This document shows positions 1,754 through 34,903 of a stretch of DNA of 64,000 nt, piece by piece (position 1 is the first letter of the stretch; every line of letters begins with the position of its first letter). Made by a program: the position numbers and the translations under genes. The stretch is taken from the NCBI GenBank assembly GCA_046726415.1, contig JBKPAK010000008.1, positions 64,766-128,765 of the forward strand, in the 5' to 3' direction. Source of the DNA: Candidatus Methylomirabilota bacterium (GTDB lineage Bacteria > Methylomirabilota > Methylomirabilia > Rokubacteriales > CSP1-6). The notes below the pieces were generated by a model. The model searched no databases and was not told the DNA's origin. It saw only the letters and a list, made by a program, of their open reading frames with translations.

Positions 1754-3100
1754 GTGAGCTACAACGCATGGTTCCAGTGCATCAACGGCTGCCCGGGCCA
1801 GTACAGCCTCCTGGAGGTCATCTATCGCTGCCCCACCTGCGGGGACCTGCTGGAGGTTCAGCACGATACCGACGCCCTGCGGAGCCGCTCGGCCGCCGCG
1901 TGGATGCAGCTCTTCGATGACCGCTACCGCCGCAACACCTATCCCTACGGCTCCGGCGTGTGGGGCAAGAAGGAGTGGGTGGTGCCCTTCATCGACAACG
2001 AGAGCATCGTGTCGATGTACGAGGGCAACTCGAATCTGCTCTGGGCCGACCGATACGGCAAGCAGCTCCACGTCGAGGACCTGTGGGTCAAACAGTGCGG
2101 CAACTCACACACCGGCTCGTTCAAGGATCTCGGCATGACCGTGCTGGTGTCGATCGTCAAGCAGATGAAGGGGGACGGCGTCCCCATCGACGCGGTGGCC
2201 TGCGCGTCGACCGGCGACACCTCGGCCGCGCTCGGGGCGTACTGCGCGGCGGCGGCGATCCCGGCGGTGGTGCTGCTGCCGCGAAACAAGATCTCGATCG
2301 CCCAGCTCGTCCAGCCGCTGGCCAACGGCGCCCTGGTACTCTCGCTCGACACCGACTTCGATGGATGCATGGCGGTGGTGCAGAAGATCACCCGGGACCG
2401 TCGCATCTACCTGGCCAACTCCATGAACAGCCTGCGCATCGAGGGTCAGAAGACGGTGGCCATCGAGATCGTGCAGCAGTTCGACTGGGAAGTGCCCGAT
2501 TGGATCGTCATCCCTGGGGGCAATCTCGGCAACGTGCACGCCCTCGGCCAGGGGTTCACCATGATGCGCGAGCTCGGGCTCATCCAGCGCCTCCCGCGCA
2601 TCTGTCTGGCTCAAGCCGAGCGGGCCAACCCGCTCTACCGCTCCTATCTCGAGGAGTTCAAGCGCTTCGAACCCATCGAGGCCCAGTCCACCCTGGCCAC
2701 GGCGGTTCAGATCGGCAATCCGGTGTCAGTCAAGCGCGCCATCCGCACGCTGCAGCGCTTCAACGGCGTGGTGGAGCAGGCGACGGAGCAGGAGCTGGCC
2801 GACGAGGCGGCCCGCGCCGACCGCACGGGGATGTTCAACTGCCCGCACACTGGGGTGGCGCTGGCCGCCCTGCGCAAACTCGTCGAACGCAAGATCGTCC
2901 GTTCGCACGAGCGGGTGGTGGTGATCTCGACCGCGAACGGGCTCAAGTTCGCCGATCAGAAGGCGGCCTATCACATGGGTGCCCTCGAGGGAATCCGGCC
3001 GTCACAGCGCAACACGCCAGTGGAACTGCCCCCCGATCCGACGCAGGTAACCCGGGCCATCGCCCGCCACGTCGAGAAGGCGCGCCTGCTCGTGTCATGA
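1754..3100 (+). CDS. thrC: Threonine synthase, plant-like type (PLP)
   Basis: [14 protein letters not shown]-lysine motif, [19 protein letters not shown] start chosen at 1754. Confidence 0.9.
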
Positions 3101-4323
3101 CGTCCCGGCGATCGAGCCCAGGCGACCCGGTGACCCCCCCGCACAAGCCGCAGGGGCCGAGCACCATGGCCGTTCACGCAGGCGAGCCGCGGCCCAAGGC
3201 CGGTCACTCGCTGGCCACACCCATCATGCAGACGGCCACCTTTACGTTCGCGAATTCTCAGGAAATCCGGGATCACTTCGACGGGAAGATCGACCGCGTC
3301 GAGTACGGGCGCTACGGCAATCCCACCCAGCGCATCGCCGAGGCCAAGCTCGCGGCCCTGGAGGGGGCGGAGGACTGCCTGCTTTTCTCGAGCGGCATGG
3401 CCGCGGTGACGACGGCCCTCTTCGCCATGCTCTCGCGGGGCACGCACGTGGTGGTCACCGACGACAGCTATCGCCGCACGCGCCAGTTCCTCAACCAGAC
3501 GCTGCACCGCTACGGCATCGAGGTCTCGACCGTGCCCCCCGGGGACTACGAGGCGCTCGAGGACGCCATTCGCCCGACCACTCGGGTGCTGGTGAGCGAG
3601 TCGCCGACCAACCCGTACAACCGCATCGTCGACCTCGAGCGCTTCGCCGCCGTCGGCCGGCGCCACCGGGTGAAGACCCTCATCGATGCGACCTTCGCGA
3701 CGCCGTACAACCAGCGGCCCCTCGAGTGGGGGGTGGACGTGGTCATCCATTCGGCCACCAAGTACCTCGGGGGACACAACGATCTTCTCGCTGGCGCGGC
3801 GCTCGGCTCCCGCGACGTCGTGGATGCTCTTCGAGGGCTCCAGGGCGTCACCGGCGCGGTCGTCGATCCGTTCGTGGCCTACCTACTCGTGCGAGGGCTC
3901 AAGACTTTCGCGCTCCGCATTGAGCGGCAGAACGCCAACGCGCAGGCCCTGGCCGAGTTCCTGGCCGGGCACCCGCGGGTGGTCGCGGTCCACTACGCTG
4001 GGCTGCCGAGCCACCCCGAACACGACATCGCCCGCCGGCAAATGCGCGGCTTCGGCGGCGTGGTATCGTTCGAGGTGCGCGGTGACCTCGATGCGGCCTC
4101 GCGCGTGGTCGACGCCTGCGGCATTCCCTACATCGCCGTCTCGCTGGGCGGCGTCGAAAGCCTCATCGAGCAGCCGGCCCTCATGAGCTTCTACGAACTG
4201 ACCACGGAGGAGCGGCTGCAGATCGGCATCAAGGACACGCTCATCCGATATTCGGTCGGCATCGAAGACATCGACGACCTGATCGCGGACCTCGGACAGG
4301 CGCTGGACCGCGCGGACGCCTGA
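3097..4323 (+). CDS. metB: Cystathionine gamma-synthase, plant-like (Cys/Met metabolism PLP enzyme)
   Basis: [38 protein letters not shown] overlap with thrC stop. Confidence 0.85.
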
Positions 4324-5633: not shown

Positions 5634-7073
5634 TCACAGCCTTGCGTCGAGCCGGCGTTGACGGTGGAGCGCGTCGCGATACCGCGCGTGGCGCGGGGGA
5701 TCGGGCTCGATGGTCGTGCCCAAGGGAAGGTGCGCCGCGCGCAGGTCGGGCAGGCGACCCAGTGACTGAAGCGCCAGCAGCGCGCACCCGCGGCTGGTGG
5801 CCTCTTCCTCAGCGGATAACGCGAGGGGACGCCCGAGCGCATCAGCAATCATCTGCGCCCACGTCCGAGAGCGCAGCGCGCCACCTGAACCGATGATGGC
5901 GTGGCTCGGCCCCACGAGCGGGGCGAGGAGGCCATAGACGAGGGCGAGGCGAAGGGCCACCGCCTCCAGCCCGGCCCGGACGAGTTCGATTGCCGTCGTG
6001 TCCAGCGAGAGCCCGGCAATCGCCGCCCTCCGTTCGCTTCGCCAACCCGGCGACCGCTCTCCGGCCAGGAAGGGAAGGACGGTGAGGCCGTGCGCGTCGG
6101 CCTCTTCGCGCCCCAGAGCCGCCTCCAGCTCGTCATCGCCAGGAAGACGGAGCAGGCTCCGCAGCCACGCGTACACGTTGCCACCCTCAGAGGTGGCCCC
6201 GCCGACGAGGGCACGCATCCGATCGATGCGATAGCTCCAAAGGCCGCGGGGAGGGGCCAGGAAGTCCTCGGCCACGAAGCGCAGGGCTGCCGATGTCCCC
6301 AGGTTGAGCGCGATGCGGGTCCGGTCGATGCAGTCGGATCCAATGGTGCCGGTGGCCCCGTCGCCGATGGCGGGAAACCACATCGCGCGCGCCAGGGCGG
6401 GCCAGCGGCGCGCCCACGGCGATCGGAGACCCCGCCGCCCGGCATCGCGGTCGCGCAGGGCGAAGAGCTGACCCTCGTCGATCCCCGCGGCGGCCAGGGT
6501 CTCGGGGTCCCAGGTGAGCGCACGCTGGTCGAAAAGGCCGGTGGCTGAGGCCATCGAGATGCTGGTGGTTGCCTCTCCGAGAAAGGTCAGCTCCAGGTAT
6601 TCGCCGATGGACCCCCAACGGGTCACGCGGCGAATCGCCACTGGGCGGTCATGGGCCAGCCAGTGGAGCTTGGCGGGCCAGTAGCACGCATGAATGTGGC
6701 AGCCCGTACGCGCGTGGACCGGATCGTCCCCCAAGGCGTCGCGCAGCAGGGCTGCATCGCGAGCGGCCCGACTGTCAGCCCAGGTGAAGATGGGCGTGGC
6801 CGGTCGCCCTGCCGTGTCAAACCCCAGCAGGCCGTGCCAGAAAGACGTCACGCCGACAGCCAGGATCTCCGGTCGGTGGGGGCCAGCCAGCGCTCCATCG
6901 ACACAGGCGATCACGGCGCGAAGCAGGCGGTCGGCATCGTGCTCCACGCCACCGTCCGCCGTCGTGGTGGGGTGGTAGCGCTCCTGATGGGCATGACCCT
7001 CGATAGGCACCCCCCGTTCGCCGTAGATCCGGGCGCGTGCCGAGGAGGTACCGACGTCGAGGGTGAGGATCAC
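5634..7073 (-). CDS. gntK: FGGY-family carbohydrate kinase, gluconokinase-like
   Basis: LDVGTSSAR, TWADSRA, NLGTSAALR, PFLAGERSPGW; GTG start at 7073. Confidence 0.75.
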   Translation of the reverse strand: MILTLDVGTSSARARIYGERGVPIEGHAHQERYHPTTTADGGVEHDADRLLRAVIACVDGALAGPHRPEILAVGVTSFWHGLLGFDTAGRPATPIFTWADSRAARDAALLRDALGDDPVHARTGCHIHACYWPAKLHWLAHDRPVAIRRVTRWGSIGEYLELTFLGEATTSISMASATGLFDQRALTWDPETLAAAGIDEGQLFALRDRDAGRRGLRSPWARRWPALARAMWFPAIGDGATGTIGSDCIDRTRIALNLGTSAALRFVAEDFLAPPRGLWSYRIDRMRALVGGATSEGGNVYAWLRSLLRLPGDDELEAALGREEADAHGLTVLPFLAGERSPGWRSERRAAIAGLSLDTTAIELVRAGLEAVALRLALVYGLLAPLVGPSHAIIGSGGALRSRTWAQMIADALGRPLALSAEEEATSRGCALLALQSLGRLPDLRAAHLPLGTTIEPDPPRHARYRDALHRQRRLDARL

Positions 7074-7185
7074 CGGGCCATCGTCGGGGAAGTTGCGCGT
7101 TAGGGCAAGAGTCGACCCATTCGGGGTGTGAGGTAAGATGGCGGCCAGAGCAGAGGCTCCGCCGGCCGCTGGACAAGGAGAAATC

Positions 7186-7752
7186 ATGGCACGCATCCGA
7201 GTGATGAGCCCCGTCGGAGAGGTCACGCAGGAGCGAATCGCCGTTCCGCCCGTGCCGGAGGACCTGGCGGGCCGGGTCGTCGGCTTCATCGACAACACCA
7301 AGCACAACTTCGACCGGTTGGCCGAGGGGCTAGGGACGCTCCTGCAGCAGCGCTACGGCGTCCGCGCCGTCGTCCATCGGCGCAAAGCCAATGCGTCCAC
7401 GCCAGCCGGGCCCGAGCTGATCGCGGAGCTGTCGAAGGAGTGCGATGTCGTCTTTGCCGGCTCAGGCGACTGAGGGTCGTGCACGTCGTGGAGTCTCCAC
7501 GACGCCATCGAGGTCGCGAGGATGGGTACGCCCGCCGGTCTGATCGCAACCACGGCGTTCCAGGGGCTTGCCGTGAGCGAGCTGACCTCGCTGGGCGTGG
7601 CGGGACTGCCGCTCCTCGTCGTTCAACATCCACTCGGCGGGGAGCGCCCCGAATCTGTCGCTCGCCGAGCACAGCAGGCGCTCGAGCAGCTGGCCAGTCT
7701 CATCGGGGGACGTCGTGAGCATCGCGGCGGGGGGCCCGGCGACGGGCGCTGA
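7186..7752 (+). CDS. UGSC-family selenoprotein (thioredoxin-like UxxC), Sec encoded by TGA at 7471-7473
   Basis: AAGGAG RBS then ATG 7186; ...VVFAGSGD-TGA-GSCTSWSLHDA... continues in frame into track ORF 7522-7752; SECIS-like hairpin immediately downstream. Confidence 0.85.
7484..7504 (+). promoter_or_regulatory. Putative bacterial SECIS element
   Basis: Perfect 9-bp stem CGTCGTGGA/TCCACGACG with GTC loop, starting 10 nt after the in-frame TGA. Confidence 0.75.
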
Positions 7753-8770
7753 GAGCGAGCGGTTCATCGAGGTCGACGACGATCCGCAGGCGCTCCTCGC
7801 CGCCTTCTGCGAGCGTCGCTGGTGCGATGGACTTCCCATCGTGGCACCCACCGAGGCGCGCGTCGCCGCCATGCTGGCCGGCCGCACTCCCGATCGCGCG
7901 CTGGGAGCCGTGCCTCCGCTCTGGAGGCAGGCCACCCTCGAGAAGCTCGCCGTCAACGCGGTCATGGCCGGCTGCGAGCCGGCCTATTTCCCGATCATCG
8001 TGGCCGCCGTCGAGGCGATGCTCGATCCCACGTTCAACCTCTACGGGGTGCAGGCCACGACCCATCCAGTCGCTCCGCTCGTTGTCGTACACGGCGAGTA
8101 CGGGCGCTCAGTCGGTGTTCACGCCGGAAGTGGCTGCCTCGGCCCGGGCTTTCGCGCCAACGCCACCCTCGGTCGCGCCATCCGGCTCATCCTGCTGAAC
8201 ATCGGCGGCGCCTGGCCGGGACGGCACGACATGGCCACGCAGGGCAGCCCGGCCAAGTTTTCCTACTGCGTCGGCGAGAACGTCGAGGCCTCGCCGTGGG
8301 GCCCGCTCCACGTCGATGACGCCGTCACCGTGTTCGGCGGGGAGCCGCCGCACAACGTGAACGACCACGTGTCCACCACCGCGTCCGGCATTCTCACCAC
8401 GGTGGCGGACACCGCGGTGTCCCTGGGGTCGAACGTCGGGTGGTTCATGGCCCAGAGTCAGCTCATGCTGATCCTCGGCCCCGAGCACGCGGCGACCATC
8501 GCCAGCGATGGTCTCTCTCGGCGCGACGTCCAGCAGTTCATCTTCGAGCACGCGCGGCTGCCCCTGCGCGTGCTCAAGCTCAGCGGCATGTGGGGGATGC
8601 ACGATTGGCCGGCGTGGATGCTGGCCACGCGAGACGACGACGCCCTCATGCCGCGGGTGCTGTCCGCCGACGAGGTGTTCGTGGTGGTCGCCGGAGGGCC
8701 GGGCAAGCACTCAGCCGTGGTGCCGAACTGCACCTTCAGCCGCGCGGTCACGCGCCCTATCCACCCCTGA
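7715..8770 (+). CDS. Conserved hypothetical protein, partner of the UGSC protein
   Basis: WCDGLPIVAPT, EKLAVNAVMAGC, GPGFRANATLGRA, GGPGKHS motifs; overlaps the 3' end of the selenoprotein gene. Confidence 0.7.
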   Translation: MSIAAGGPATGAESERFIEVDDDPQALLAAFCERRWCDGLPIVAPTEARVAAMLAGRTPDRALGAVPPLWRQATLEKLAVNAVMAGCEPAYFPIIVAAVEAMLDPTFNLYGVQATTHPVAPLVVVHGEYGRSVGVHAGSGCLGPGFRANATLGRAIRLILLNIGGAWPGRHDMATQGSPAKFSYCVGENVEASPWGPLHVDDAVTVFGGEPPHNVNDHVSTTASGILTTVADTAVSLGSNVGWFMAQSQLMLILGPEHAATIASDGLSRRDVQQFIFEHARLPLRVLKLSGMWGMHDWPAWMLATRDDDALMPRVLSADEVFVVVAGGPGKHSAVVPNCTFSRAVTRPIHP

Positions 8771-8800
8771 CGTCCACTCCATTGACATGGAGGCTCGGCC

Positions 8801-9703
8801 ATGAAGATCGCGTTCTTGGGCACCGGCACCATGGGTCGGCCGATGCTGGCCAATCTCGTGAAGAAGGGTCACGCGGTGCTCGCCCACGATATCGTTCCCG
8901 AGGCGCTCAGCGCCGCGGTGAAGCTCGGAGCCACCGCGGCGGGCTCGGCCGCGGAGGCCACCGTCCAGGCCGAGGTTGTCATCGCCATGCTGCCTTCGTC
9001 TTCGCACGTGGTCACCGCTTTCCTCGGCGACGGCGGCGTGCTCGCGGCGGTGCGCTCCGGTCAGCTCTGCATCGACATGTCGACCATCGATCCCAGCACC
9101 TCACGGATGGTGGCCGAGAAGGTCCGCGAGCGCGGTGCTCGCTTCATCGACGCGCCCGTCTCGGGTGGGGTCCCGCGCGCCGAGGATGGCACGCTGGCCA
9201 TCATGGTGGGCGGCGACGTGAAAGATGTGGAGGGCGCGCGGCCCATCCTCGGCTGCATGGGGGCGAGCATCTTCCACGTCGGCCCGGTGGGCAGCGGTGA
9301 GGTGGCCAAGCTGTGTAACAACCTGATCGCCGGCGTGGCCGCGGTGGCGGTGAGCGAGGCGTTTCGCATCGCGGAGGGCTTCGGTGTCGATGCCAAGATC
9401 CTCACGGACGTCATCGCAAAATCGTCGGGGAACACCTGGGTGATGGAGGCGATGCATCCGGTGCCGGGTCTCGTGGCGAAATCCGCATCGACTCGCGACT
9501 ACGCCCCCGGCTTCATGACCGACCTCATGGCCAAGGATCTCGGCCTCGCCGTCAACGCCGCTCGCGAGCTGCGCGTGCCCGTCATGGTCGCTCCCGCCGC
9601 GCAACAAGCTCTGCGGTTGGCGTCCTCTCACGGCTGGGGTCGGAAGGACTTCACGTCGATCTACCAGTTCCTGAAGCCCTCGAGCGACCAGGCGCCTGTT
9701 TGA
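8801..9703 (+). CDS. mmsB: 3-hydroxyisobutyrate dehydrogenase family
   Basis: GTGTMG Rossmann motif, DAPVSGG, AKLCNN, YAPGFMTDLMAKDLGLA. Confidence 0.8.
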   Translation: MKIAFLGTGTMGRPMLANLVKKGHAVLAHDIVPEALSAAVKLGATAAGSAAEATVQAEVVIAMLPSSSHVVTAFLGDGGVLAAVRSGQLCIDMSTIDPSTSRMVAEKVRERGARFIDAPVSGGVPRAEDGTLAIMVGGDVKDVEGARPILGCMGASIFHVGPVGSGEVAKLCNNLIAGVAAVAVSEAFRIAEGFGVDAKILTDVIAKSSGNTWVMEAMHPVPGLVAKSASTRDYAPGFMTDLMAKDLGLAVNAARELRVPVMVAPAAQQALRLASSHGWGRKDFTSIYQFLKPSSDQAPV

Positions 9704-9705
9704 GA

Positions 9706-9871
9706 TGGGGGGCCTCGAGCGGGCCCCCCAAACCCCCCGGCGCTCGTCGCGCCCCGGCGAAGCCGGGGCGCTCCTCCAAACCCCTGGGCGCCCGGCGCGC
9801 CCCGGCGAAGCCGGGACGCTCCTCGAAGTCAGCGCTCGGCGCGCCCCGGCGAAGCCGGGGCGCTCCTCGAA
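9706..9871. repeat. REP-like palindromic repeat cluster
   Basis: Three copies of GCGCCCCGGC-GAA-GCCGGG(G/A)CGCTCCTC at 9749, 9797 and 9841, preceded by a GGGGGGCC-n7-GGCCCCCC hairpin. Confidence 0.85.
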
Positions 9872-10010
9872 GCGCGCGGCGGTTGGCGGGTGTGACATCG
9901 AGCCTCGAGCTGCCTCGAAACAGCCGGTGAGTTCCCGCGAGCTGATGACGTGTCGCGATCTTCTCCGGCGTGATTTCGTCCGTGGGCGCGCGGGAGGCTT
10001 GAGACCTGCG

Positions 10011-10019
10011 TGCTATACT
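10011..10019 (+). promoter_or_regulatory. Putative extended -10 promoter of the GYD/AOR operon
   Basis: TGCTATACT upstream of AAGGAGG RBS and GTG 10065. Confidence 0.5.
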
Positions 10020-10064
10020 GGCGAGCGTTTCGCCAGGTGAGTAGCGTTCCAAGGAGGCTTTGCG

Positions 10065-10388
10065 GTGAGTCTGTACGTGATGCTGAGTACTCTCTCGGAG
10101 TCGGGGCGCAAGGTTCTCCGGGAGCGCCCCGGCTGGATCCGCAAGGTCAATGCGGACGTCGAGCGCATGGGCGCCCGCGTGATCTCGCAGTACGCCGTGC
10201 TCGGCCCTTACGACTTCGTGACCGTCGTGGAGGCCCCCGACAACCCCACGATCTCTCGGATCTCCGTCGAGTTGGGGGCGCGCGGATCGGTACAGATGAT
10301 GACCATGGCCGCCATTCCCCTCGACGAGTTCATCGGCCGCCTCGAGGGGCGAGGCAGTGCGGCCGGCAACGCTCGAAAGAAACGGTGA
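10065..10388 (+). CDS. GYD domain protein
   Basis: YAVLGPYDFVTVVEAPD motif; AAGGAGG RBS. Confidence 0.8.
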   Translation: MSLYVMLSTLSESGRKVLRERPGWIRKVNADVERMGARVISQYAVLGPYDFVTVVEAPDNPTISRISVELGARGSVQMMTMAAIPLDEFIGRLEGRGSAAGNARKKR

Positions 10389-10390
10389 GC

Positions 10391-10888
10391 ATGACGACCC
10401 TGGCTGTGCCTGCCATGCGAGTCCTGAAGATCATCCCCGAGCGGTGCACGGGCTGTCTGCGCTGCGAGCTAGCCTGCTCCTACATGCAGACTGGAGAGTA
10501 CCAGCCGGCCAAGTCGGTGATCAGGGTGTCGCCCTTCGAGGGGCATACGTCCTACGCGCCGTACACGTGCACGCAGTGCGCTGAGGGCTGGTGCATGACG
10601 GCGTGTCCGGTGGGGGCCATCACCATCAACGCGGCCGGCGCCAAGGACGTGGTCGACGACATCTGCGTGGGCTGCAAGCTCTGCACGATCGCCTGCCCCT
10701 ACGGGACGATGTTCTACGACACCGACACTCGTAAGGCCTTCAAGTGCAACCTGTGCAACGGCGCTCCCGCGTGCGCCGAGGCCTGTCCCACGGCGGCCAT
10801 TCTCTACGAGGAGGTGGCGAACCAGGACTGGCTGGGGGATTTCGCGCGAGAGCGGTTCGAGCATGCGCTGACCCTGGAGGCCCGGTGA
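10391..10888 (+). CDS. 4x[4Fe-4S] electron-transfer subunit (AorA-like)
   Basis: CTGCLRCELAC, CTQC..GWCMTACP, CVGCKLCTIACP, KCNLCNGAPACAEACP. Confidence 0.85.
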   Translation: MTTLAVPAMRVLKIIPERCTGCLRCELACSYMQTGEYQPAKSVIRVSPFEGHTSYAPYTCTQCAEGWCMTACPVGAITINAAGAKDVVDDICVGCKLCTIACPYGTMFYDTDTRKAFKCNLCNGAPACAEACPTAAILYEEVANQDWLGDFARERFEHALTLEAR

Positions 10889-12210
10889 TGGTCCGCCATC
10901 TGATCATCGGGGGCGGCACCGTCGGCATGAACGCCATGCGCACCATTCGGGAAGAGGAACCCGAGCGCTCGGACATCACCCTGGTCAGCGCCGAGAAGCC
11001 GTACTCGCGCATGGTGCTGCCGTACTATCTCGATCGCTCCATCGCGGAATCGCACGTGTACACGGCCACCGCGAAGGTCCTGGCCGGCTGGGGTGTCAAG
11101 ACGCACGTCGGGCGCCGGGCCAGCGCTCTCGACACCACGGCCAACGTCTGCACCCTCGACGACGGCACCCGGATCGAGTACGACGACTGCCTGGTCGCCA
11201 CCGGATCCTCGGCGGTGCGAGCGCCGGTGCCGGGCGCGGATGGTCGGGGTGTGCACTCCTTCTGGACCCTCGACCAGGCCAAGGGGGTGTTGGCCGAGAT
11301 CGGGCCGGGGAGCCACGTGGTGATGGTGGGGGCTGGCTTCATCTCGTTCACCATCCTGAATTCGATCCTCGCCCTCGGCGCCACGCTCACCATCGTCGAG
11401 ATCGCGCCGCGGATCCTGCCGCGCATGGTGGATGCGGCAGGCGCGGAGCTGGTGGAGACGTGGCTGATCAAGAACGGGGTCAGCGTGCGGGCGGGCGCCG
11501 TGCTCAAAGCCATCGAGGACGCCAAGGCCAAAAAGCGGCTCCGCTTCGAGCAGGGTCCCGATCTTCTGGCCGACGTCGTGGTCATGGCCACCGGCATCAG
11601 GACCAATCTCGAGTGGCTGAAGGGATCCGGCGTCGCGATCGAGCAGGGCGTCGTCGTCGACGACCATCTCCGATCCAGTGTTCCGAATGTCTATGCCGGG
11701 GGCGATGTGGCCGAGGGGCGTGACCTCGTGACCGGCCGTCCCGCCGTGCACGCCATCGAGCCAACGGCGCAGGAGCACGGGCGCGTGGCCGGCGCCAACA
11801 TGGCGGGCCAGAGCATCGCGTACAGGGGCAGCTTGCTCATGAATATCGTGGAAGTCTGTCATCTGGACATCGCCTCGTTCGGCGCCTGGGATGACGGCGA
11901 GGCCGAGGTGTTGACTGGGCTTCGATCGGACCGTCCGGCGTATCGCAAGCTCGTGTGGCGCGGCGACCGCTTGATCGGCGCCATCATCCTCGGGCCCTCG
12001 AGCGACATCTGGACCTCCAACGACATCGGAATGCTGAAGGGACTCGTGCAATCGGGATCCCCGATCGGGCGGTTCAAGGCTCACCTGGCTCGGAATCCCT
12101 TCGACATCAAGCCGGCGTACATTGCCTCGAGGACCACTGCCATGCTGCTCCCCGAAACCGTGCTCGGGCGGCCGGCGAAGGCGCCCGCAGACACTCCGGT
12201 GGCCGTATGA
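10888..12210 (+). CDS. FAD/NAD(P)H-dependent oxidoreductase (AorC-like)
   Basis: IIGGGTVG, VATGS, VGAGFIS, YAGGDVA; TGATG overlap. Confidence 0.8.
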   Translation: MVRHLIIGGGTVGMNAMRTIREEEPERSDITLVSAEKPYSRMVLPYYLDRSIAESHVYTATAKVLAGWGVKTHVGRRASALDTTANVCTLDDGTRIEYDDCLVATGSSAVRAPVPGADGRGVHSFWTLDQAKGVLAEIGPGSHVVMVGAGFISFTILNSILALGATLTIVEIAPRILPRMVDAAGAELVETWLIKNGVSVRAGAVLKAIEDAKAKKRLRFEQGPDLLADVVVMATGIRTNLEWLKGSGVAIEQGVVVDDHLRSSVPNVYAGGDVAEGRDLVTGRPAVHAIEPTAQEHGRVAGANMAGQSIAYRGSLLMNIVEVCHLDIASFGAWDDGEAEVLTGLRSDRPAYRKLVWRGDRLIGAIILGPSSDIWTSNDIGMLKGLVQSGSPIGRFKAHLARNPFDIKPAYIASRTTAMLLPETVLGRPAKAPADTPVAV

Positions 12211-14180
12211 GTCCCACGACACGGACCGCGCGCGCGACGGCGAAGAAGCCCACGAGAACCAAGGCGGCGCCAGGCAAGGCGGCGAGGCCGCGGCCTGTCC
12301 TGCCCGGCGGCTACGCCGGGAAGATTCTCCGAGTCGACCTGGCATCCGGGCGCTGCTGGGCGGAGCCGTGGGGCCCGGCCGAGATGCGGGAACAGATCGG
12401 GGGGATCGGCCTGGGCGCCATGATCCTGTACCGCGAGACGGCCGCCAAGAATGGCAAGGGCAACGTGAGCTGGGACCATCCCGACAACCGATTGGTGCTC
12501 GCCACCGGCCCGCTGGCCGGGCTGCCCGTGTGGGGCACAGGCGGGCTCACCGTGGTCACCATCGGCGCCGGCACCAATGGGCCGACGTCGACGCAGGCCA
12601 ACGGCTTCTTCGGCACGAACATCAAGTATTGCGGGTACGACGCCATCGTCTTCCAGGGTCAATCCGAGAAGTGGGTGTACCTCTACGTCCACGACGACGT
12701 GATCGAGCTGCGCGACGCGAGCGACCTGGTCGGGCTCGATACCTGGGAGACCCAGTACCGCCTCTCTCGGCTGCACGGGCTCTCGGGTCACCAGCTCTCG
12801 GTGTACTCGATCGGGCCGGCCGGCGAGAACCTCGCCCGCTTCGCGGCCATCCAGGGGGACTTCGGCCATGTCGCCTCCAAGAATGGCGTGGGCGCGGTCA
12901 TGGGCAAGAAGAAGGTCAAGGCGGTCGCCATCGCCAAGGGCACCAAAAGCCTCCGCGCGGCCGATCCCAAGGGGGTCATCCAAGCGGCTGACGACATCGC
13001 CCACGACCTCCAGACGGACCCCTCGGCGCGCTCGCTGTACGAATACGGCACGCTGCCCGGCGTCTCGAACCTCTCCAAGATGGGCGCGCTGCCCGTCAAG
13101 AACTACACGACGAATCTCACCCTCGGGGTCGACATGAGCGAGTGGGACGCCGCCAAGCTCCGCGAGGGCTTCGACCACCGCGGGCACCAGTGCAACGCCT
13201 GCGGCATGCACCACTGCCACATGTCGGTGATCCGGAGCGGCGAGAACAAGGGCAAGATCGTCGACGAGCCGGAGTACGAGGGTTGGTCGGGCGCGGGCTG
13301 GACCATCGGGCTCACCGATCGCGATTCGATCGCGTGGCTCAACACCGAACTGGACAAGGCCTGCCTGGACGTCAACGAGTTCGGGTGGGTGTGCGGCTGG
13401 GTGATGGAGTGCCAGGAGAAGGGCTACATCACCAAGGAGCAGCTGGGCTTCGAGCTGCCCTGGGGCGATGTCAAGGGCGCGGCCCGCTTGATCCAGATGA
13501 TCTCGAAACGCGAGGGGCTCGGCGATCTCCTCGCCGAGGGTGTCAAGCGCGCCGCGGAGTCGCTCGGCAGTCCCGCCAAGGACTGTGCGATCTACATCGA
13601 GCGGGGGGCCGCGCCACGCGGCCACGACCACCGCGCCCGGTGGGAGGAGATGCTCGATACCTGCACCTCTGGCACCGCCACCATGGAAACCGGCAATCCC
13701 GTCCATCCCACGGAGCTCGGCCAGCCCGCTCGCATCAATCCCTTCGACGGCGAGCAGGTGGCGAAGTACGTGGCGAATCTGCGCGGGCGGCGGAACTTCG
13801 AGGACTCGCTGGGGATCTGCATCTTCACCATCCGCACGCGGCTCGAGAACGTCTGCCGAGCCCTCAGCGCCGCCACCGGGTGGAACTACACCGTCGAAGA
13901 AGCCATCCGCTTCGGCCGGCGCACCGCCGCCATCAACCGCACGGTGCTCCTGCGCTGCGGAATCACCCCGGCATCCGAGTACCCCTCGGCACGCTACGGC
14001 TCCACGCCCGTCGACGGGCCCGCCCAGGGGCAAGCCATCCGCGATCAGTGGGAGAAAATGCTGGACACCTGGTACGAGGTCGTTGGCTATGATCGCAAGA
14101 CCGGCAAGCCACTGCCGGCGACCCTGAAGGATCTCGGGCTCGACTGGCTCGTCGCCGAGCATTGGGGGAAGAGGGCCTAA
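12207..14180 (+). CDS. aor: Tungsten-dependent aldehyde:ferredoxin oxidoreductase, catalytic subunit
   Basis: GYAGKILRVDL, IGPAGENL, GVGAVMGKK, CNACGMHC, EPEYE, GDLLAEG. Confidence 0.85.
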   Translation: MSPTTRTARATAKKPTRTKAAPGKAARPRPVLPGGYAGKILRVDLASGRCWAEPWGPAEMREQIGGIGLGAMILYRETAAKNGKGNVSWDHPDNRLVLATGPLAGLPVWGTGGLTVVTIGAGTNGPTSTQANGFFGTNIKYCGYDAIVFQGQSEKWVYLYVHDDVIELRDASDLVGLDTWETQYRLSRLHGLSGHQLSVYSIGPAGENLARFAAIQGDFGHVASKNGVGAVMGKKKVKAVAIAKGTKSLRAADPKGVIQAADDIAHDLQTDPSARSLYEYGTLPGVSNLSKMGALPVKNYTTNLTLGVDMSEWDAAKLREGFDHRGHQCNACGMHHCHMSVIRSGENKGKIVDEPEYEGWSGAGWTIGLTDRDSIAWLNTELDKACLDVNEFGWVCGWVMECQEKGYITKEQLGFELPWGDVKGAARLIQMISKREGLGDLLAEGVKRAAESLGSPAKDCAIYIERGAAPRGHDHRARWEEMLDTCTSGTATMETGNPVHPTELGQPARINPFDGEQVAKYVANLRGRRNFEDSLGICIFTIRTRLENVCRALSAATGWNYTVEEAIRFGRRTAAINRTVLLRCGITPASEYPSARYGSTPVDGPAQGQAIRDQWEKMLDTWYEVVGYDRKTGKPLPATLKDLGLDWLVAEHWGKRA

Positions 14181-14277
14181 AGCCGCCCACCCACCGGGGC
14201 GCGAATCCCGCTTGACCCTCCGCTCAGCGGTGTGATAAGTGTCTGCCGCGCCTCACAGTCACACACCCGGGGGGAGT

Positions 14278-15162
14278 ATGCCGCAAACAATTGGATTCAT
14301 TGGCCTTGGCATCATGGGTCGCCCTATGGCCAAAAACCTCCTCAAGGCTGGCTTTCCGCTGATCGTCCATAGCCGGAGCCGGGGACCCGTCGATGAACTG
14401 GTCGAGGCGGGCGCCAAGGCTGCGCAGGCCCCGCGGGAAGTGGCCGGCCAGTGCGATGTCCTCATCACTATGCTCCCGAACTCACCGGATGTGGAACTGG
14501 TCGCCCTCGGCAAGGACGGCATCATCGAGGGCGCCCGGTCTGGCCTGATTTTCATCGACATGTCCACGATCTCGCCCATCGTGTCGCAGAAGGTGGGCGC
14601 GGCGCTCGGGGCCAAGGGCGTTCGGATGCTGGACGCGCCGGTCTCCGGAGGCGAGAAGGGCGCGATCGAGGGGGCGCTCTCCATCATGGTGGGAGGCGAC
14701 CAGGCGGTCTTCGACGCGGTGCTGCCCATCCTCAAGGCGATGGGGAAGACCATCACCCTGCTCGGTCCGCTCGGCTTCGGCGGATTCACCAAACTGGCCA
14801 ACCAGATCATCGTGGCCATGAACCTCACGGCCCTGGGCGAGGCGCTGACCTTGGCCCGCAAGGCGGGACTTGATCGAGAGCTCACCCTCAAGGCGCTGGC
14901 CGGTGGGCTGGCCGGGTCGCGATGTCTCGACCAGAAGGCCGCCAACTACATCGCGGGGACCTACAATCCCGGCTTCAAGATCGATCTGCACTTCAAGGAT
15001 CTCGGACTCATCATGGAGTCGGCCCGCGCCCTGGGGGTGCCGCTTCCCGCGACCGCCGTGGTGCAGGAGCTGTTCAACGCGCTGCGAGTCAAGGGGCGGG
15101 GTGGTCTCGACCATTCCGGCGTGATCACCCTCCTGGAAGATCTCGCGGGCCTGTCCGCGTGA
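14278..15162 (+). CDS. garR: 2-hydroxy-3-oxopropionate (tartronate semialdehyde) reductase
   Basis: GFIGLGIMGRPMAKNL, MLPNSPDV, KLANQIIVA, PGFKIDLHFKDL. Confidence 0.8.
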   Translation: MPQTIGFIGLGIMGRPMAKNLLKAGFPLIVHSRSRGPVDELVEAGAKAAQAPREVAGQCDVLITMLPNSPDVELVALGKDGIIEGARSGLIFIDMSTISPIVSQKVGAALGAKGVRMLDAPVSGGEKGAIEGALSIMVGGDQAVFDAVLPILKAMGKTITLLGPLGFGGFTKLANQIIVAMNLTALGEALTLARKAGLDRELTLKALAGGLAGSRCLDQKAANYIAGTYNPGFKIDLHFKDLGLIMESARALGVPLPATAVVQELFNALRVKGRGGLDHSGVITLLEDLAGLSA

Positions 15163-24402: not shown

Positions 24403-27168
24403 TCAATCGATACCCACCGGGGCTGGTGCCTCGGTGGCCATCACCGGCACTGGCCCCGGTCGAGGGCCTGGCCGAATCATCCGGAGGAGTACGGGCAGCA
24501 CCACGAGAGAAGCGACCAGGCTGGCCAATGTGCCGAGCGTGAGGAGCAAGCCGAGGCCGAAGATGCCCCGGTGGTCAGCCAGCATCAGGCTTCCGAAGCC
24601 CACGATCGTGGTCAAGCCGGCCACCAGCACGCCCATGACCGTGCTGCGCGCGATCAGCGGCGCACCCGCGTCGCGCCGCGTCTCTATGTAGCGCATCACG
24701 ATGTTCAACCCGTACTCGGCGGCGGCGCCCAAGATCAACGGGAGCCCGAAGATGTTCCCCATGTTGAAGTCGAGCCCAAAGAGCCACATCAATCCGCCCG
24801 TCCAGATCAGGCCGAGGGCCAAGGGGAGCAGGGCGAGCGCCGTCTCTCGCACACGGCGAAGCATCGCGAAGGTAAGCCCGCTCACCAGCAACACCGCGTA
24901 GATCGTCCCCTGCTTATAGGCCCGCTCCATGAGGGTGATGGCCTCATAGGTGATGATGGGCGTGCCCGTCACCTCGGGGTCGATGGCCCGCAACTCCTGA
25001 ACGAAGCGGCTGGCACCTTCGCGCTCCCAGATGTCCACGGCCGGGTGGATCTGCAGGAGGAAGCCCCCGCGGTCGCTGATGAACTTGCGCTTCAGCTCGG
25101 GCGGAATGCTGGCCAGCCCGATCTCCCTCGGATTGAGATTGGCCTGCAGGCGCTGGAACTTCTGCAGGAAGTCCCGGTAGATCTGGCGCTGGAGGTTGTT
25201 GAGGATCGGCTCGCTCACCTCCGGCTCGGTCGTCTTGAGCTTGCTCATGAGCCGTTCCAGGTCCGCCACCGTGCGCGTGAGCTTCTGCTTCGCCTCTCCG
25301 GCCGGGGCCTCGCTGGCGGCAATGTCCAGGCGCCGCTTGAGCGATTCCAGTTCCGTGACCAGCCGGCTCACATCGACCGGCACCGGGCGCCCGATTCGCA
25401 CCGGTCCCACCAGCTCCGCGAAATCGCGGATGATCTTCAGCTTCTGCGGCTGGTCGCTGGGGATGAGGAGAAGCGCGGAGTCGACCTCGGAGACGCTGGG
25501 CACCTTGACGAAGGCGTCGCGCTTCTTCTTCAGTTCCTCCAGCGACGAGGCGCTGGCGAGGGCGGCGAAGCCGGAGCGCCCGGACGAGGCCAGGATGCGG
25601 CGCTCCCACACCACGGACTCCGTGCCCGGCGCCTGGAGATTGAGCAGGTTGAAGTCGAAGTGCACGTAGCGTATGCCCCACAGCGAGAGCACGGTGACGA
25701 GGGCGGCGACGGCGAGCACGGTGCCGGGATGCCGGGTGAGCTGCTCGACGAAGGGGACGTGGATGCTCTCCAGTCGCATGGCGCGGGGGATCGGGGGCAC
25801 CGCCCGCGCCAGATGCCGCCGGTCGACGACGACGAGCACGGCAGGGAACACCGTCATCATCGCTACCCACGCCAGCAGGATGGCCGTGCCGGCGATGAAG
25901 CCCAGTTCTTGAAGTCCGCGAAAGTCGGTGAGCATGAGGACGTAGAACGTTCCGGCGGCAGTGATGGCCCCCAGCAGCACCCCGGGACCGCTGCGCTGCG
26001 CCGTGATCTCGATGGCCGCTCGCAGGTTCCGCCCGAGGAACAGCTCTTCCTCGTAGCGGAAGAGGAAGTAGATGCCGTAGTCGATGCCGATGCCGATGAC
26101 GATCGAGATGAACATCACGGAAAACAGCGACAAATGGCCGATGGCCAGGGTGGCCACACCGATCGACCAGCACAGACTGACGGCCAGCACGGTCAGCATG
26201 AGAATCGGCTTGCCGACTCGCATGAAGGCCAGCACGAGCAGCCCCAGGGTAAGGCCGAAGGCCAGCAGGGTGGCTCGCTCGCTGTCGCGGAAGGCAGCCG
26301 TCATCTCGTCGTTGGAGAGCACGGGCTTCCCGGTGACGCCGACCTGTACGTTGGGGAAGTCGCGCTTGAGCGAGGCCACCACCGCCCGGATGCCGTCGAT
26401 GGCCTCGCGGTCGTCGGTGAAGCTCCCGGACTGACTGACGGGCTCGGCCAGGATGAAGAGGAGTCGCTGGTCCTCGGAGAGGAAGTAGCCGGCCCCGCCT
26501 TCCTCGGTGTCCGGCACCGAGAAGAGGGAGCCGAAGGGCGATCGGTAGGCGATGGCCCGATCGAGACGCTCGGAGATCTGCGCAACCAGGTCCTGAATGA
26601 ACCGGAGGTCCACGGCCCCTTTGGGGTCCGAGAGACCCAAATCGAGAAAGCCCGAGGCGAAGCCGCTGGCCACGTGGGTGGAGATCCCGTTCACGAGCGT
26701 GTCCAAGGTGGGTCGGGAGGCGAAGGCCTCCATCAATTCCTGGTTGTCATAGATCTTCTCCCGGATCTCGCTGAGGCGCTCCGGGGACAGGTAGAGCAAC
26801 GCGCGTCCCTCGAACTGCTTCGGATCGATGCGGTAGGCGATGCGCTTGAGCGGCACCTGCCGGGCTCGCAGTTCGCGGACGAGGCGCGTGGCATACTCTT
26901 TCGCTTCGGTCAGCGAGGGGGCTTCCACCACGATGGCGATGTCGTCGAGGTCGCCGAAGTCCCGGCTGTACTCCACCCAGCGCAGGATGTAAGGACGATC
27001 CTGAGGGAGGAGATCTCGTGGAGACGTCTTGAGGGTGAGCGTCGTGAGGGCGTACACCACGCTCAGCGCGGCTAGCGCGAGGGCCGCCGTCAGCGTCCAC
27101 CAGGGGCGCGCCGTGGAGACCCGGGCGAGCCGACCCAGGAACCGTCCGGTCGTGGAGACCCGCGCCAA
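24403..27168 (-). CDS. hpnN: Hopanoid RND/MMPL transporter
   Basis: Two MMPL repeats (IGIGIDYGI; LTTIVGFGSL), 921 aa, at the end of the shc operon. Confidence 0.8.
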   Translation of the reverse strand: MARVSTTGRFLGRLARVSTARPWWTLTAALALAALSVVYALTTLTLKTSPRDLLPQDRPYILRWVEYSRDFGDLDDIAIVVEAPSLTEAKEYATRLVRELRARQVPLKRIAYRIDPKQFEGRALLYLSPERLSEIREKIYDNQELMEAFASRPTLDTLVNGISTHVASGFASGFLDLGLSDPKGAVDLRFIQDLVAQISERLDRAIAYRSPFGSLFSVPDTEEGGAGYFLSEDQRLLFILAEPVSQSGSFTDDREAIDGIRAVVASLKRDFPNVQVGVTGKPVLSNDEMTAAFRDSERATLLAFGLTLGLLVLAFMRVGKPILMLTVLAVSLCWSIGVATLAIGHLSLFSVMFISIVIGIGIDYGIYFLFRYEEELFLGRNLRAAIEITAQRSGPGVLLGAITAAGTFYVLMLTDFRGLQELGFIAGTAILLAWVAMMTVFPAVLVVVDRRHLARAVPPIPRAMRLESIHVPFVEQLTRHPGTVLAVAALVTVLSLWGIRYVHFDFNLLNLQAPGTESVVWERRILASSGRSGFAALASASSLEELKKKRDAFVKVPSVSEVDSALLLIPSDQPQKLKIIRDFAELVGPVRIGRPVPVDVSRLVTELESLKRRLDIAASEAPAGEAKQKLTRTVADLERLMSKLKTTEPEVSEPILNNLQRQIYRDFLQKFQRLQANLNPREIGLASIPPELKRKFISDRGGFLLQIHPAVDIWEREGASRFVQELRAIDPEVTGTPIITYEAITLMERAYKQGTIYAVLLVSGLTFAMLRRVRETALALLPLALGLIWTGGLMWLFGLDFNMGNIFGLPLILGAAAEYGLNIVMRYIETRRDAGAPLIARSTVMGVLVAGLTTIVGFGSLMLADHRGIFGLGLLLTLGTLASLVASLVVLPVLLRMIRPGPRPGPVPVMATEAPAPVGID

Positions 27169-27179
27169 CGACCTTTCGC

Positions 27180-28253
27180 CTACTCTTCGCCGGCGATGAA
27201 CCTTTCGAGGCGCTGCCGGGCCGCGTCGTCAGGCCACTGTTCGGGCGGTGACTTCATCAGGTAGGCGGACGGGGCCAGCAAGGCGCCCTTGATACCGCGA
27301 TCGAGGGCGAGCTTGCAGGCCCGGAGGGCGTCGATCACCACGCCCGCCGAGTTCGGTGAGTCCCACACCTCGAGCTTCAACTCGAGGTTGATGGGTTGGT
27401 CGCCAAAGCCGCGCCCCTCCAGCCGGATGTGAGCCCACTTGCGGTCGGCCAGCCACGGCACGTAGTCGCTGGGGCCGATGTGGATGGCCTCGGCCGGCAA
27501 CTCGTGGCCGAGCTGGGAGCGCACGGCGTCCGTCTTGGAGATCTTCTTGGAGACGAGCCGCTCGCGCTCCAGCATGTTGTAGAAGTCGGTGTTGCCACCG
27601 AAGTTGAGCTGGCTGGTGCGGTCGAGGTGCACGCCGCGATCCATGAAGAGCTTGGTGAGCACGCGGTGGACAATGGTGGCGCCGACCTGGGACTTCACGT
27701 CGTCACCGACCAGGGGCAGGCCGCGCTCCTCGAAGCGGCGTCGCCAATAGGCCTCGCGCGCGATGAAGACGGGGATGCAGTTCACAAAGGCACAGCCCGC
27801 GTCGAGGACTTGCTCCACGTACCACTTGGTGGCCATCTCGCTGCCCACCGGTAGGAAGTTGACCACCACGTGGGTGCCCGTGTCCCGGAGGATGCCCGCG
27901 ATGTCGGCCGTCGAGCCGGGCGCCTTGCGGATCATCTGGGCGAGATAGACGCCGAGGCCATCGTGCGTCATGCCTCGCTGGACGGTGACGCCCAGCGGGG
28001 GCACCTCGGCGAACTTCACGGTGTTGTTCGGCTCCTGAAAGATGGCGTCTCCAAGGTCGCGACCCACCTTGCGCTCGTCGATGTCGAAGGCCGCCGAGAA
28101 CTCGATGTCGCCGACATGATAGCCCCCGAGGCGGGGATGCATCAGTCCGGGGATGAAGACGTCGTCGGCAGCGTGGCGATAGTACTGCACCCCTTGGACG
28201 AGCGACGAGGCACAGTTGCCGACGCCAATGAGGGCGACACGTAGGGAGCTCAC
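27180..28253 (-). CDS. ino1: myo-inositol-1-phosphate synthase
   Basis: [39 protein letters not shown]. Confidence 0.92.
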
Positions 28254-28357
28254 GCGGTCCTCCTCGTGCGGCGTGAGCGGAACGTCACGCGCGGTGATCT
28301 CGACGGCAACGGCTTAGTCTAGCACAGCGACGGCGGCGGCCCCTCATTCGCCGGCGC

Positions 28358-28999
28358 CTAGGACTTCTTGGACTTGTCGGACTTATCGGAGTCGATCAGC
28401 TCGTTCTGCCTGGTCTTCATGCGGTCGACCAGGGACTGATAGGACGAGGTCTGGATGATCTTGTTGAACTGGGTGCGGTAGTTGTTGATGAGGCTGACGC
28501 CCTCGATCACCACGTCGTAGACCAGCCACCGGTCGTTGCGCTTCACCATGCGGTAGTCGACCGGGACGTCGGTGCCCTGCTTGGTGATGATCTTGGTCTT
28601 GACCAGCGCGGCGTCGCCCTCGATGGTGTCGCCGTTGTAGGCGATTTTCTCGCCGCCGTAGTTCTCGATCTTGGACACGTAGGCGCGCTCCAAGAGGTCC
28701 GCGAAGAGCTTGACGAATTCCTCCCGCTCCGCCGGCGTCCGCGCCTGCCAGTGGCGCGCCAGCGCGCGCTTGGACATCTCCTCGAAGTCGAACGTCTCGA
28801 AGGCGATCTTCCGGACGGCGGCCCGCCGCTCGGTGGCCTTACCGTCTCTCTTGAGGTCCGGGTCGTCGACCGTCTTGATGACGCGGTCGATTTGGGCGCG
28901 AAGCTGGTCGGTGGGCACGCCCGCCCATGCCGCGGAGGCGAGGATGAGGCCGGCCACCAGGGTGAGGGCGAGAGCGATGTGTGGGGCACGTGACATCAT
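28358..28999 (-). CDS. mlaC: MlaC/Ttg2D (HpnM-like) periplasmic lipid shuttle
   Basis: FDFEEMSKRAL..W, YDVVIEGVSLINNYRTQF; signal peptide. Confidence 0.85.
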   Translation of the reverse strand: MMSRAPHIALALTLVAGLILASAAWAGVPTDQLRAQIDRVIKTVDDPDLKRDGKATERRAAVRKIAFETFDFEEMSKRALARHWQARTPAEREEFVKLFADLLERAYVSKIENYGGEKIAYNGDTIEGDAALVKTKIITKQGTDVPVDYRMVKRNDRWLVYDVVIEGVSLINNYRTQFNKIIQTSSYQSLVDRMKTRQNELIDSDKSDKSKKS

Positions 29000-29027
29000 G
29001 AGAGTCCTCCCTCCAGCGCTCGCATGC

Positions 29028-29468: not shown

Positions 29469-29504
29469 GTTCGACCTTCTCCTCTGAGGTCCGAGGCGAC
29501 CGCC

Positions 29505-32931: not shown

Positions 32932-32969
32932 GACCAATAATGCTAACATGATGGGAGAACGTTCAGGAC

Positions 32970-34726: not shown

Positions 34727-34903
34727 GGCGCGGGTCGGCCGATGAACAAGGACCATCTGCATCGCTGGCTCGTCGGGCGCTCCCTGCGGTGCTTGTCGGC
34801 CACCCGCGGGCAGGGGGTGGGGACATCGACGGGAGCCCAGCTTCGCCGGGGCCTGACCAAAGTCGCGCGGCGCGGGGGCCCGAGCTAGGCCCCATCGTCC
34901 CTC

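Follow-up and report, generated by a model that had tools for sequence, protein, structure and literature searches.

The subject of this report is a 64,000-nt stretch of contig JBKPAK010000008.1 (positions 64,766 to 128,765) from a Candidatus Methylomirabilota bacterium, referred to below as the window, and within it a gene at window positions 7186–7752 that is interrupted by an in-frame TGA codon. The best explanation overall, to which a probability of about 0.88 can be given on comparative grounds, is that 7186–7752 is one gene of the UGSC selenoprotein family, that its internal UGA would be decoded as selenocysteine (Sec) by way of a hairpin just downstream, and that its product would act together with the protein encoded by the following gene, here called the partner. 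Sec decoding and membership of the UGSC family can be regarded as very well founded, and joint action with the partner as likely. The gene is an ordinary member of an already described selenoprotein family and not a new kind of gene. The chemistry that it may carry out with its partner is where most of the interest now lies.

The interrupted reading frame

The forward frame 7186–7749 is open apart from TGA 7471–7473, and gives one protein of 188 residues when that codon is read as U, with the sequence ...VVFAGSGD-U-GSCTSWSLHDAIEVA... around it; the terminal stop is TGA 7750–7752. The listing of open reading frames (ORFs) splits the locus into 7138..7473 (111 aa) and 7522..7752 (76 aa), which share frame 1 of the + strand. 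A preliminary description of the locus had proposed that these two fragments share a frame, are separated only by TGA 7471–7473 and together form a 188-aa protein that standard gene callers split, and translation bears this out. The elements of the gene are as follows.

7175..7180, + strand: Shine-Dalgarno-like AAGGAG, 5 nt ahead of ATG 7186, read from the sequence
7186..7752, + strand: UGSC-family selenoprotein gene, 188 codons including the predicted Sec96 and then a stop, with a match to PF24696 and an AlphaFold model
7471..7473, + strand: UGA as putative selenocysteine (U96) in the motif GD-U-GSC, aligned codon TGA in 70 of 76 homologous domains
7484..7504, + strand: candidate bacterial selenocysteine insertion sequence (SECIS) hairpin, 9-bp stem, loop GUC, 19 nt after the UGA, −13.5 kcal/mol

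The start is likely to be 7186 and not 7138, since AAGGAG lies 5 nt before ATG 7186 and homologues begin at the same Met (MARIRV.../MSRIRV...).

Codons at the selenocysteine column

Related loci (numbered with L) were picked by the partner protein instead of UGSC, to avoid bias in the sampling of the upstream codon. One genome per species was scanned, giving 617 partner relatives, and 77 loci were kept; UGSC domains, located by a local profile scan in which TGA was treated as X, were found in nearly all of them. Of the 76 domains that span the Sec column, counting that of the window, 70 have TGA, three TGC (L015, L031, L036), one TGT (L058), one TCG and one GGC. A further UGSC domain, cut at its N-terminus, also carries TGA. 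The TGA forms come from Methylomirabilota, Chloroflexota, Pseudomonadota, Binatota, Actinomycetota and others, and the Cys forms include both archaeal records, from Natrialba (L031) and from a Methanobacteriaceae bin (L058). The in-frame TGA of the window is clearly not a product of chance, as 70 of 76 homologous domains have TGA at the corresponding position.

Replacement by Cys of the residue specified by TGA is a signature of Sec. The preliminary description had pointed to Cys-aligned homologues as a way of checking the claim, and such homologues exist: besides the TGC and TGT forms above, 11 of 23 full-length fused relatives (see below) have Cys at the Sec column.

The public protein sets reflect the same codon. 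Among database proteins, 22 of the 62 near-length hits extend over exactly the N-terminal 50% of the query, and all four that were fetched end in ...GS[GA]D, which indicates truncation at the TGA by gene callers. None of the 113 longer hits covers more than 54% of the query, and those inspected start after the TGA. Two database proteins of full length or longer, P0002 and P0184, have G and W, respectively, at the Sec position, and these residues were probably produced by gene calling under translation tables 25 and 4.

When other TGAs of the window were considered, 17 were found to join two open stretches rich in GC at third codon positions (GC3), and by context all but 7471 are gene ends or shadow frames. 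Sec machinery was seen beside the pair in one of the related loci: in L038, selB (1948–3870, with GTP_EFTU, a SelB beta-barrel, and winged helices 2 and 3) starts 7 nt after it, the sole such case among 76 same-strand neighbour ORFs scanned. No tRNA-Sec was found in loci L001–L060, and the GTPase at 43001–45079 of the window is EF-G.

The SECIS hairpin

Positions 7484–7492 (CGUCGUGGA) pair without mismatch to 7496–7504, leaving an apical loop GUC at 7493–7495; the spacing from TGA to loop is 19 nt and the hairpin alone has a free energy of −13.5 kcal/mol. The perfect 9-bp stem and G-initiated loop noted in the preliminary description are thus confirmed exactly. According to the text available from PMC13188914, bacterial SECIS (bSECIS) elements have a loop of 3–9 nt, a stem of 4–16 bp, G among the first two loop positions, a UGA-to-loop distance of 16–37 nt and a minimum free energy of at most −7.5 kcal/mol, and the window hairpin lies within every one of these published limits. 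Under a strict evaluation that allowed no bulges, the same constraints hold for 59 of the 71 TGA homologues, as against 109 of 1420 codon-shuffled controls.

An alignment of the stem over the 71 sequences, of which 69 are distinct, adds evidence of covariation. Across the 69 distinct homologues the named stem is paired in 84.9% of cells, compared with 19.8–51.2% when its 3' side is slid, and both sides change in seven of the nine stem pairs. Compensatory cells number 23, against 7.2 ± 2.3 in shuffles, and none of 500 shuffles reaches 23. Stem pair 21–27, for example, is G-C in 55 sequences and C-G in 10. RNAalifold by itself keeps a 5-bp core with compensatory changes in four of its pairs. Synonymous codon choice is also constrained, the Ser codon of the loop (codon 8) being AGT in 62 of 63 Ser-coding sequences, while AGT is generally rare (12 of 253 Ser codons in ten window genes). 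The Ser codon of the 5' arm is TCG in 53 of 57, and Ser codon 3, just before the hairpin, is freely mixed. In a sub-type with the motif U-G-[SA]-C-[TS]-P-A-V, the hairpin sits at the same distance but is unrelated in sequence (GCCCGCA...UGCGGGC). This CTPAV-type sub-type keeps the TGA and is always fused to the partner (L017:190–249, L025:9838–9897, L032:11534–11593).

Like elements of the bSECIS model and the E. coli fdhF type, the window hairpin lies within the coding sequence, and its 3-nt loop starting G-U, 9-bp stem, 19-nt spacing and −13.5 kcal/mol fall within the limits for such elements. It differs in matching no Rfam family, the search of the window returning nothing at gathering score and, around the hairpin, only two chance-level matches (E 4.1 and 7.2), and in having a stem built from the codons of a conserved T-S-W-S-x-H-D. 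Since the stem is made of these codons, peptide and RNA constraints are entangled. The comparative evidence for a SECIS function is stronger than that from folding the single sequence.

Family membership and predicted fold

The read-through protein matches PF24696 (UGSC family) with 160.7 bits (E 4.8e-47, gathering cut-off 25), residues 6–173 aligning to positions 2–170 of the 172 in the profile and running across U96. The homology therefore continues through the TGA, and the proposal that this is a UGSC-motif protein holds. The defining U(or C)-G-S-C motif is present as GD-U-GSC, with an invariant G at +1 and Cys at +3 in 64 of the 66 TGA forms that adjoin the partner.

In calling the gene a hidden selenoprotein, the preliminary description was correct in that callers split it, but the family was already described in 2007–2008 (PMC1976440, PMC2398784, in the portions available) and has both Pfam and NCBIfam models. 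The available part of PMC2398784 counts 255 Sec and 21 Cys forms in the GOS data (its Table 2), places UGSC among selenoproteins with a redox (UxxC) motif and a 'likely Trx-like fold', and reports the fusion of UGSC to a conserved unknown domain; the 'Unknown_1' domain of that account is presumably the partner family described here. In the text available from each, reviews of 2022 and 2026 (PMC9312934, PMC13188914) list UGSC with NF041046 and describe the functions of such proteins as largely uncharacterised, PMC5029168 counts UGSC in sequenced bacteria, and PMC7539508 names it as one of the algal families. Within the accessible portions of the literature that names UGSC selenoproteins, no functional study of UGSC was found. 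Compared with the family of Zhang and Gladyshev (2007/2008), as far as those accounts are available, the window gene shares the motif D-U-G-S-C-T-S-W, the length, the directly downstream SECIS and the predominance of Sec over rare Cys (255 against 21 in GOS, 70 against 4 here); there is no essential difference, and the window gene is a member.

The AlphaFold model of the UGSC protein, built with an alignment of 60 sequences, is confident (pLDDT 93.2, pTM 0.85) and has five beta-alpha units. Sec96 is predicted to lie between strand 3 (88–94) and the N-terminus of helix 3 (97–112), with Cys99 one turn beyond it, and this modelled geometry suits a selenenylsulfide/selenol-thiol couple. A Foldseek search of the Protein Data Bank (PDB) matched the model to flavodoxin, azoreductase, WrbA, flavodiiron flavodoxin domains and G domains at TM 0.41–0.50, and no thioredoxin-family entry was among the 50 matches listed. 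The preliminary description of a thioredoxin-like redox motif therefore stands for the UxxC motif and not for the fold, which is predicted to be flavodoxin-like. At the level of sequence, profile searches of PDB entries gave nothing for either protein (best E 0.19 for UGSC and 0.35 for the partner). In the ESM Atlas, the UGSC domain of a natural Cys relative gave no usable hit, and the partner matched only its own family.

The partner gene and its linkage to UGSC

The gene that follows overlaps the 3' end of the UGSC gene.

7715..8770, + strand: partner gene encoding 351 aa from a GTG start, with no matching family in Pfam or NCBIfam; shares 38 nt with the UGSC 3' end, read in another frame

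The absence of a Pfam or NCBIfam family extended to 60 relatives scanned at E ≤ 1, where any one family appeared in at most one of the 60 and none recurred. A lenient scan of 60 UGSC members likewise found no recurring second Pfam family (at most two of 60). Partner relatives are numerous, with 5919 hits among 8000 candidates scored; the best 120 are 74–99% identical and come mostly from Rokubacteria/Methylomirabilota-type records. Of the partner clusters at 50% identity, 5029 have E ≤ 0.001, and of these 1172 have E ≤ 1e-30.

UGSC and the partner are closely linked. Pairs no more than 400 nt apart number 73, found in 68 of the 77 loci plus the window. UGSC precedes the partner in 57 and follows it in 16; the two are fused in frame in 18 and separate in 55. 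The lengths of database representatives tell a similar story: 23 of 25 with 505–586 aa consist of a full UGSC and partner, four of six with about 460 aa have the partner and then the N-terminal half of UGSC ending where the TGA would be, and all five with 410–443 aa begin with the post-TGA half. A FastTree phylogeny of 62 partner domains (10 of the 72 distinct domains were dropped, their envelope coordinates having overrun a stop) requires at least six changes between fused and separate states and at least four changes of gene order, so that fusion has happened repeatedly. Separate genes in different frames are the commonest layout (31 of 73), which includes the window, L002, L003 and L004. 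The partnership itself is shown by gene fusion and neighbourhood; from these we infer physical contact.

Near relatives of fused and split form differ at 7704–7708 by a one-base shift of frame. Five consecutive G residues occupy these positions in the window, just ahead of the partner GTG, and a close relative, P0185, is fused across that point. A sequencing-error frameshift splitting a fusion was considered and rejected: the separate, other-frame layout is the commonest, and the 99%-identical P0064, which is from another contig and a cluster of 37, starts at the same GTG.

Seven residues of the partner (D38, G39, P45, C87, N149, R154 and E188) are kept in all 73 domains that adjoin UGSC. With a Cys, two acids and an Arg that could bind a carboxylate, they look like an active site, and the partner is probably the catalytic subunit. 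Its predicted structure is also of high confidence (pLDDT 92.1, pTM 0.91). The best structural match in the PDB is 7xky_A, a chain of class I fumarate hydratase (E 6.1e-4, TM 0.28/0.33, rmsd 16), and Toblerone-fold cyclic amide hydrolases come next, at TM about 0.19. Identification of the partner as a class I fumarate hydratase or Toblerone-fold hydrolase was rejected, the TM values being well under about 0.5 and no PDB sequence match having an E value below 0.35.

Several loci depart from the simple pair. UGSC lies 1380 nt from the partner in L058, and L013 and L060 are cut at a contig edge. In Poribacteria a shorter partner of about 315 aa occurs with no UGSC within about 6 kb (L041:5971–6918, L047:3304–4251, L062:5968–6918, L068:5974–6924), and this form matches only query residues 18–281 (18–295 in L047). 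Elsewhere, two or three UGSC–partner modules stand side by side (L051:3332–8780, L032:4498–12916, L025:5944–11214, L017:178–2991, and L014 on both strands); the Chloroflexi contig L051 has three modules, and L032 has three UGSC domains, one of them a Ser form. Such arrangements suggest paralogues with different specificities. L004 is filed under Candidatus Nitrosocosmicus sp., an ammonia-oxidising archaeon, yet it carries a bacterial-type TGA and in-frame hairpin. Its partner is 66% identical to that of the window, and it is probably a mis-binned Methylomirabilota-like contig.

Proposed mechanism

A bacterial SECIS recruits SelB-GTP-Sec-tRNASec to the ribosome paused at a UGA. In the window, the hairpin at 7484–7504, which lies within the coding sequence, would act in this way and cause UGA 7471–7473 to be decoded as Sec. 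The UGSC protein and the product of 7715–8770 may then form one two-part, selenol-dependent redox enzyme, in which the partner would bind a small substrate, probably one bearing a carboxylate, at a site formed by D38, C87, N149, R154 and E188. Sec96 and Cys99 would cycle between selenol-thiol and selenenylsulfide, giving two electrons to the bound substrate or taking them from it, perhaps by way of a mixed Se-S bond to partner C87, and would be re-reduced by a flavoprotein of the thioredoxin reductase (TrxR) type or by the general thioredoxin system. Support for such a relay comes from the U-x-x-C arrangement in 64 of the 66 TGA forms next to the partner and from the invariance of C87 (73 of 73).

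As stated, this redox-relay mechanism is put forward tentatively, at a little short of even odds. A broader and more speculative proposal, judged less likely than not, is that UGSC and partner constitute a widespread, uncharacterised two-component selenoenzyme, in which a flavodoxin-fold Sec-x-x-Cys module feeds electrons to a new catalytic fold, a TrxR paralogue supplies them in some lineages, and small organic acids are reduced or rearranged in aerobic soil and freshwater bacteria.

Neighbouring genes and electron supply

A possible source of electrons, and the most informative of the neighbours, was seen in some lineages. In five loci of alphaproteobacterial type (L042, L056, L061, L063 and L071) a TrxR paralogue lies 4–64 nt upstream of UGSC on the same strand. 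Because its TIGR01292 score of about 180 bits falls below the cut-off of 343, it is a paralogue and not the housekeeping enzyme. A database protein, P0320, is a fusion of the partner to a TrxR domain (331 bits).

Immediately downstream of the window pair is a gene of the 3-hydroxyisobutyrate dehydrogenase (HIBADH) family.

8801..9703, + strand: HIBADH-family gene, starting 30 nt beyond the partner; TIGR01692 score 320.1 bits (cut-off 291.6)

It is a possible, weakly linked member of the operon. A gene of this family is also downstream in L001, L003 and L004, but 887–3105 nt away. The families most often encoded next to the pair, counted as same-strand genes in 78 neighbourhoods, were as follows.

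TctC receptors, the most frequent neighbour family: 14 of 78
Short-chain dehydrogenases: 10 of 78
CoA-transferase III: 10 of 78
Enoyl-CoA hydratase: 9 of 78
Amidase: 7 of 78
Luciferase-like monooxygenase: 6 of 78
HIBADH-like: 6 of 78
PrpD/MmgE: 5 of 78

Across these 78 neighbourhoods there is no constant third gene beside the pair. TctC, PrpD/MmgE, CoA-transferase III and amidase hint at di- and tricarboxylates and their amides as candidate substrates.

On the other side of the UGSC gene, the longest ORF of a divergent FGGY-family sugar kinase (5634–7307, − strand) extends into the UGSC start. As its Pfam domain does not begin until residue 79, the kinase probably starts well inside the ORF, and the overlap is probably an artefact of the ORF listing. 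The same divergent position upstream is taken in L001 by an unidentified ORF of 540 aa. A promoter and terminator scan of 6800–10200 yielded nothing useful.

Further downstream lies a cluster at 10010–15162. It encodes a 4Fe-4S protein; a flavoprotein that most resembles phenylglyoxylate dehydrogenase subunit epsilon, with 238.6 bits for NF045765 (cut-off 475); an aldehyde:ferredoxin oxidoreductase of the tungsten type (AFOR_N/AFOR_C); and, at 14239–15162, another HIBADH-family protein. The regions 24403–42937 and 52538–62384 hold a hopanoid/isoprenoid cluster (squalene-hopene cyclase, squalene/phytoene synthase, DUF3463 radical SAM, LytB and MMPL transporter) and a sulfur-oxidation cluster (flavocytochrome c sulfide dehydrogenase, SoxY, SoxZ, and a molybdopterin oxidoreductase with an NrfD/4Fe-4S partner), which give the metabolic setting of the organism.

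Alternative explanations

A number of observations count against the decoding of the TGA as Sec. None of selA, selB, selC or selD was found in the 64-kb window (46 ORFs scanned; no tRNA and no Rfam hit), which says little, since the window is a 64-kb piece of a genome. The NCBIfam equivalog model NF041046, 'UGSC family (seleno)protein', gives 121.1 bits when U is treated as C, where the cut-off is 125; the close relative L001 scores 131.8, L043 117.1 and L053 104.1, the last two loci being from the cultivated Robertmurraya sp. and Vineibacter terrae, respectively. In the bulge-free evaluation, twelve of the 71 TGA homologues fall short of the −7.5 kcal/mol limit, and these still have a hairpin of −5.8 to −7.0 kcal/mol at the same or nearly the same place, 18–24 nt after the UGA. 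The hairpin by itself is weak evidence, because the whole 66-nt fold is no better than chance (z −0.82, 41 of 200 shuffles equally stable) and 873 of 5000 synonymous recodings with window codon usage (17%) still satisfy the bSECIS constraints, with only 68 of the 5000 as stable as the real hairpin. Two of the four Cys forms (L031, L036) retain a weaker hairpin, and we infer Sec insertion from comparison alone. If the TGA were instead a real stop, the locus would be a pseudogene, two small genes or a sequencing error with no full-length protein, and this would agree with the two ORFs of standard gene calling, with the lack of Sec machinery in the window and with public protein sets full of truncated halves. 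A nonsense mutation or error would not recur at one column across phyla, though, and here the same TGA occurs in 70 of 76 domains with the protein conserved on both sides, is followed by a conserved and covarying hairpin, and is replaced by Cys codons in four; a real stop is thus highly improbable. A genome-wide reassignment of TGA to Trp or Gly (tables 4 or 25) would account for the W of P0184 and the G of P0002 at this column without any Sec, although these are probably gene-calling products under those tables. TGA is an ordinary stop elsewhere in the window, where it ends the Pfam-supported genes 33707–34726, 36058–37143, 62052–62384 and 50805–52520 (− strand) as well as the UGSC gene itself, and apart from gene ends and shadow frames TGA 7471 is the only one in the window to join two well-coding stretches. 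As homologues also substitute Cys, the chance that reassignment is the explanation is negligible.

If the protein is a selenoprotein, as preferred here, its role may still differ from the relay proposed above. Some observations speak against an obligatory relay: in six fully flanked loci (L039, L041, L046, L047, L062 and L068) the partner occurs and no UGSC lies within about 6 kb; 12 of the 23 full-length fusions carry neither Sec nor Cys at that position (e.g., D-S-G-V-T), yet 22 of the 23 keep the partner Cys (A-V-M-A-G-C), the exception, P0416, also lacking the UGSC Cys; P0320 is without a UGSC domain and couples the partner directly to TrxR; and TrxR-like neighbours occur in only 5–6 of the 78 neighbourhoods and do not adjoin the window pair. 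Moreover, the terms 'enzyme' and 'carboxylate substrate' are drawn from conserved polar residues and mixed organic-acid neighbourhoods, because the partner has no convincing solved relative (TM 0.28/0.33). UGSC might be a free-standing general thiol/selenol oxidoreductase, such as a thioredoxin-like antioxidant, with an incidental neighbour, as would fit its placement among UxxC selenoproteins of 'likely Trx-like fold' in the available part of PMC2398784 and the great variation of surrounding genes between loci. This is very unlikely, given that UGSC adjoins the partner in 68 of 77 loci for which the partner was the sole basis of choice, that fusions in both orders have arisen several times, and that the predicted fold is flavodoxin-like, with no thioredoxin-family protein among the 50 PDB matches listed. 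Less improbable, but still unlikely, is that UGSC is mainly a structural or regulatory subunit of the partner, with Sec or Cys as an accessory outside the catalytic cycle, e.g., a redox switch. The fused relatives that lack both residues and keep the domain, the six loci with a partner and no UGSC, and the invariant C87, D38, E188 and R154, which could make up a self-sufficient active site, are all in line with an accessory role. Sec is normally retained only where it is doing chemistry, and what tells against such a role is that 70 of 76 domains preserve this costly residue and 64 of 66 the resolving Cys, and that TrxR-like genes and a TrxR fusion accompany the pair.

Comparison with other systems and significance

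UGSC resembles the thioredoxin/TrxR systems in its U/C-x-x-C dyad, predicted to sit at a helix N-terminus, and in the TrxR-family flavoprotein genes that are adjacent or fused in some lineages. It differs from thioredoxin in its modelled fold, a five-stranded flavodoxin-like sandwich. A working likeness to the Stickland reductases is also possible. GrdA, GrdB and PrdB belong to the glycine, betaine and D-proline reductases of Stickland-fermenting anaerobes, which are re-reduced by thioredoxin reductase and thioredoxin. The analogy would lie in a Sec-x-x-Cys (or Cys-x-x-Sec) protein working with a substrate-binding subunit. No sequence relation was found, none of 60 UGSC and none of 60 partner proteins matching the Pfam GRDB or related models (E ≤ 1), and in contrast to the Stickland anaerobes the UGSC hosts and contexts are those of soil and freshwater bacteria with an aerobic or facultative way of life that utilise organic acids.

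For annotation, the locus is a textbook case of a gene cut in two by ordinary callers, and the public protein sets hold UGSC halves as well as copies with G or W at the Sec position. The gene of the window is itself not unusual. What has been added to the known UGSC family is a predicted flavodoxin-like fold, counts for the linkage to the partner, and the association with TrxR-like proteins. The remaining interest is in the chemistry of the UGSC–partner pair, that is, the role of a partner of about 350 residues with no Pfam family and the need for a Sec-Cys pair, and biochemistry would be feasible, as the two could be expressed together or as a natural Cys fusion. If the two-component selenoenzyme proposed above proved true, it would play, outside the anaerobes, a role equivalent to that of the Stickland reductases.

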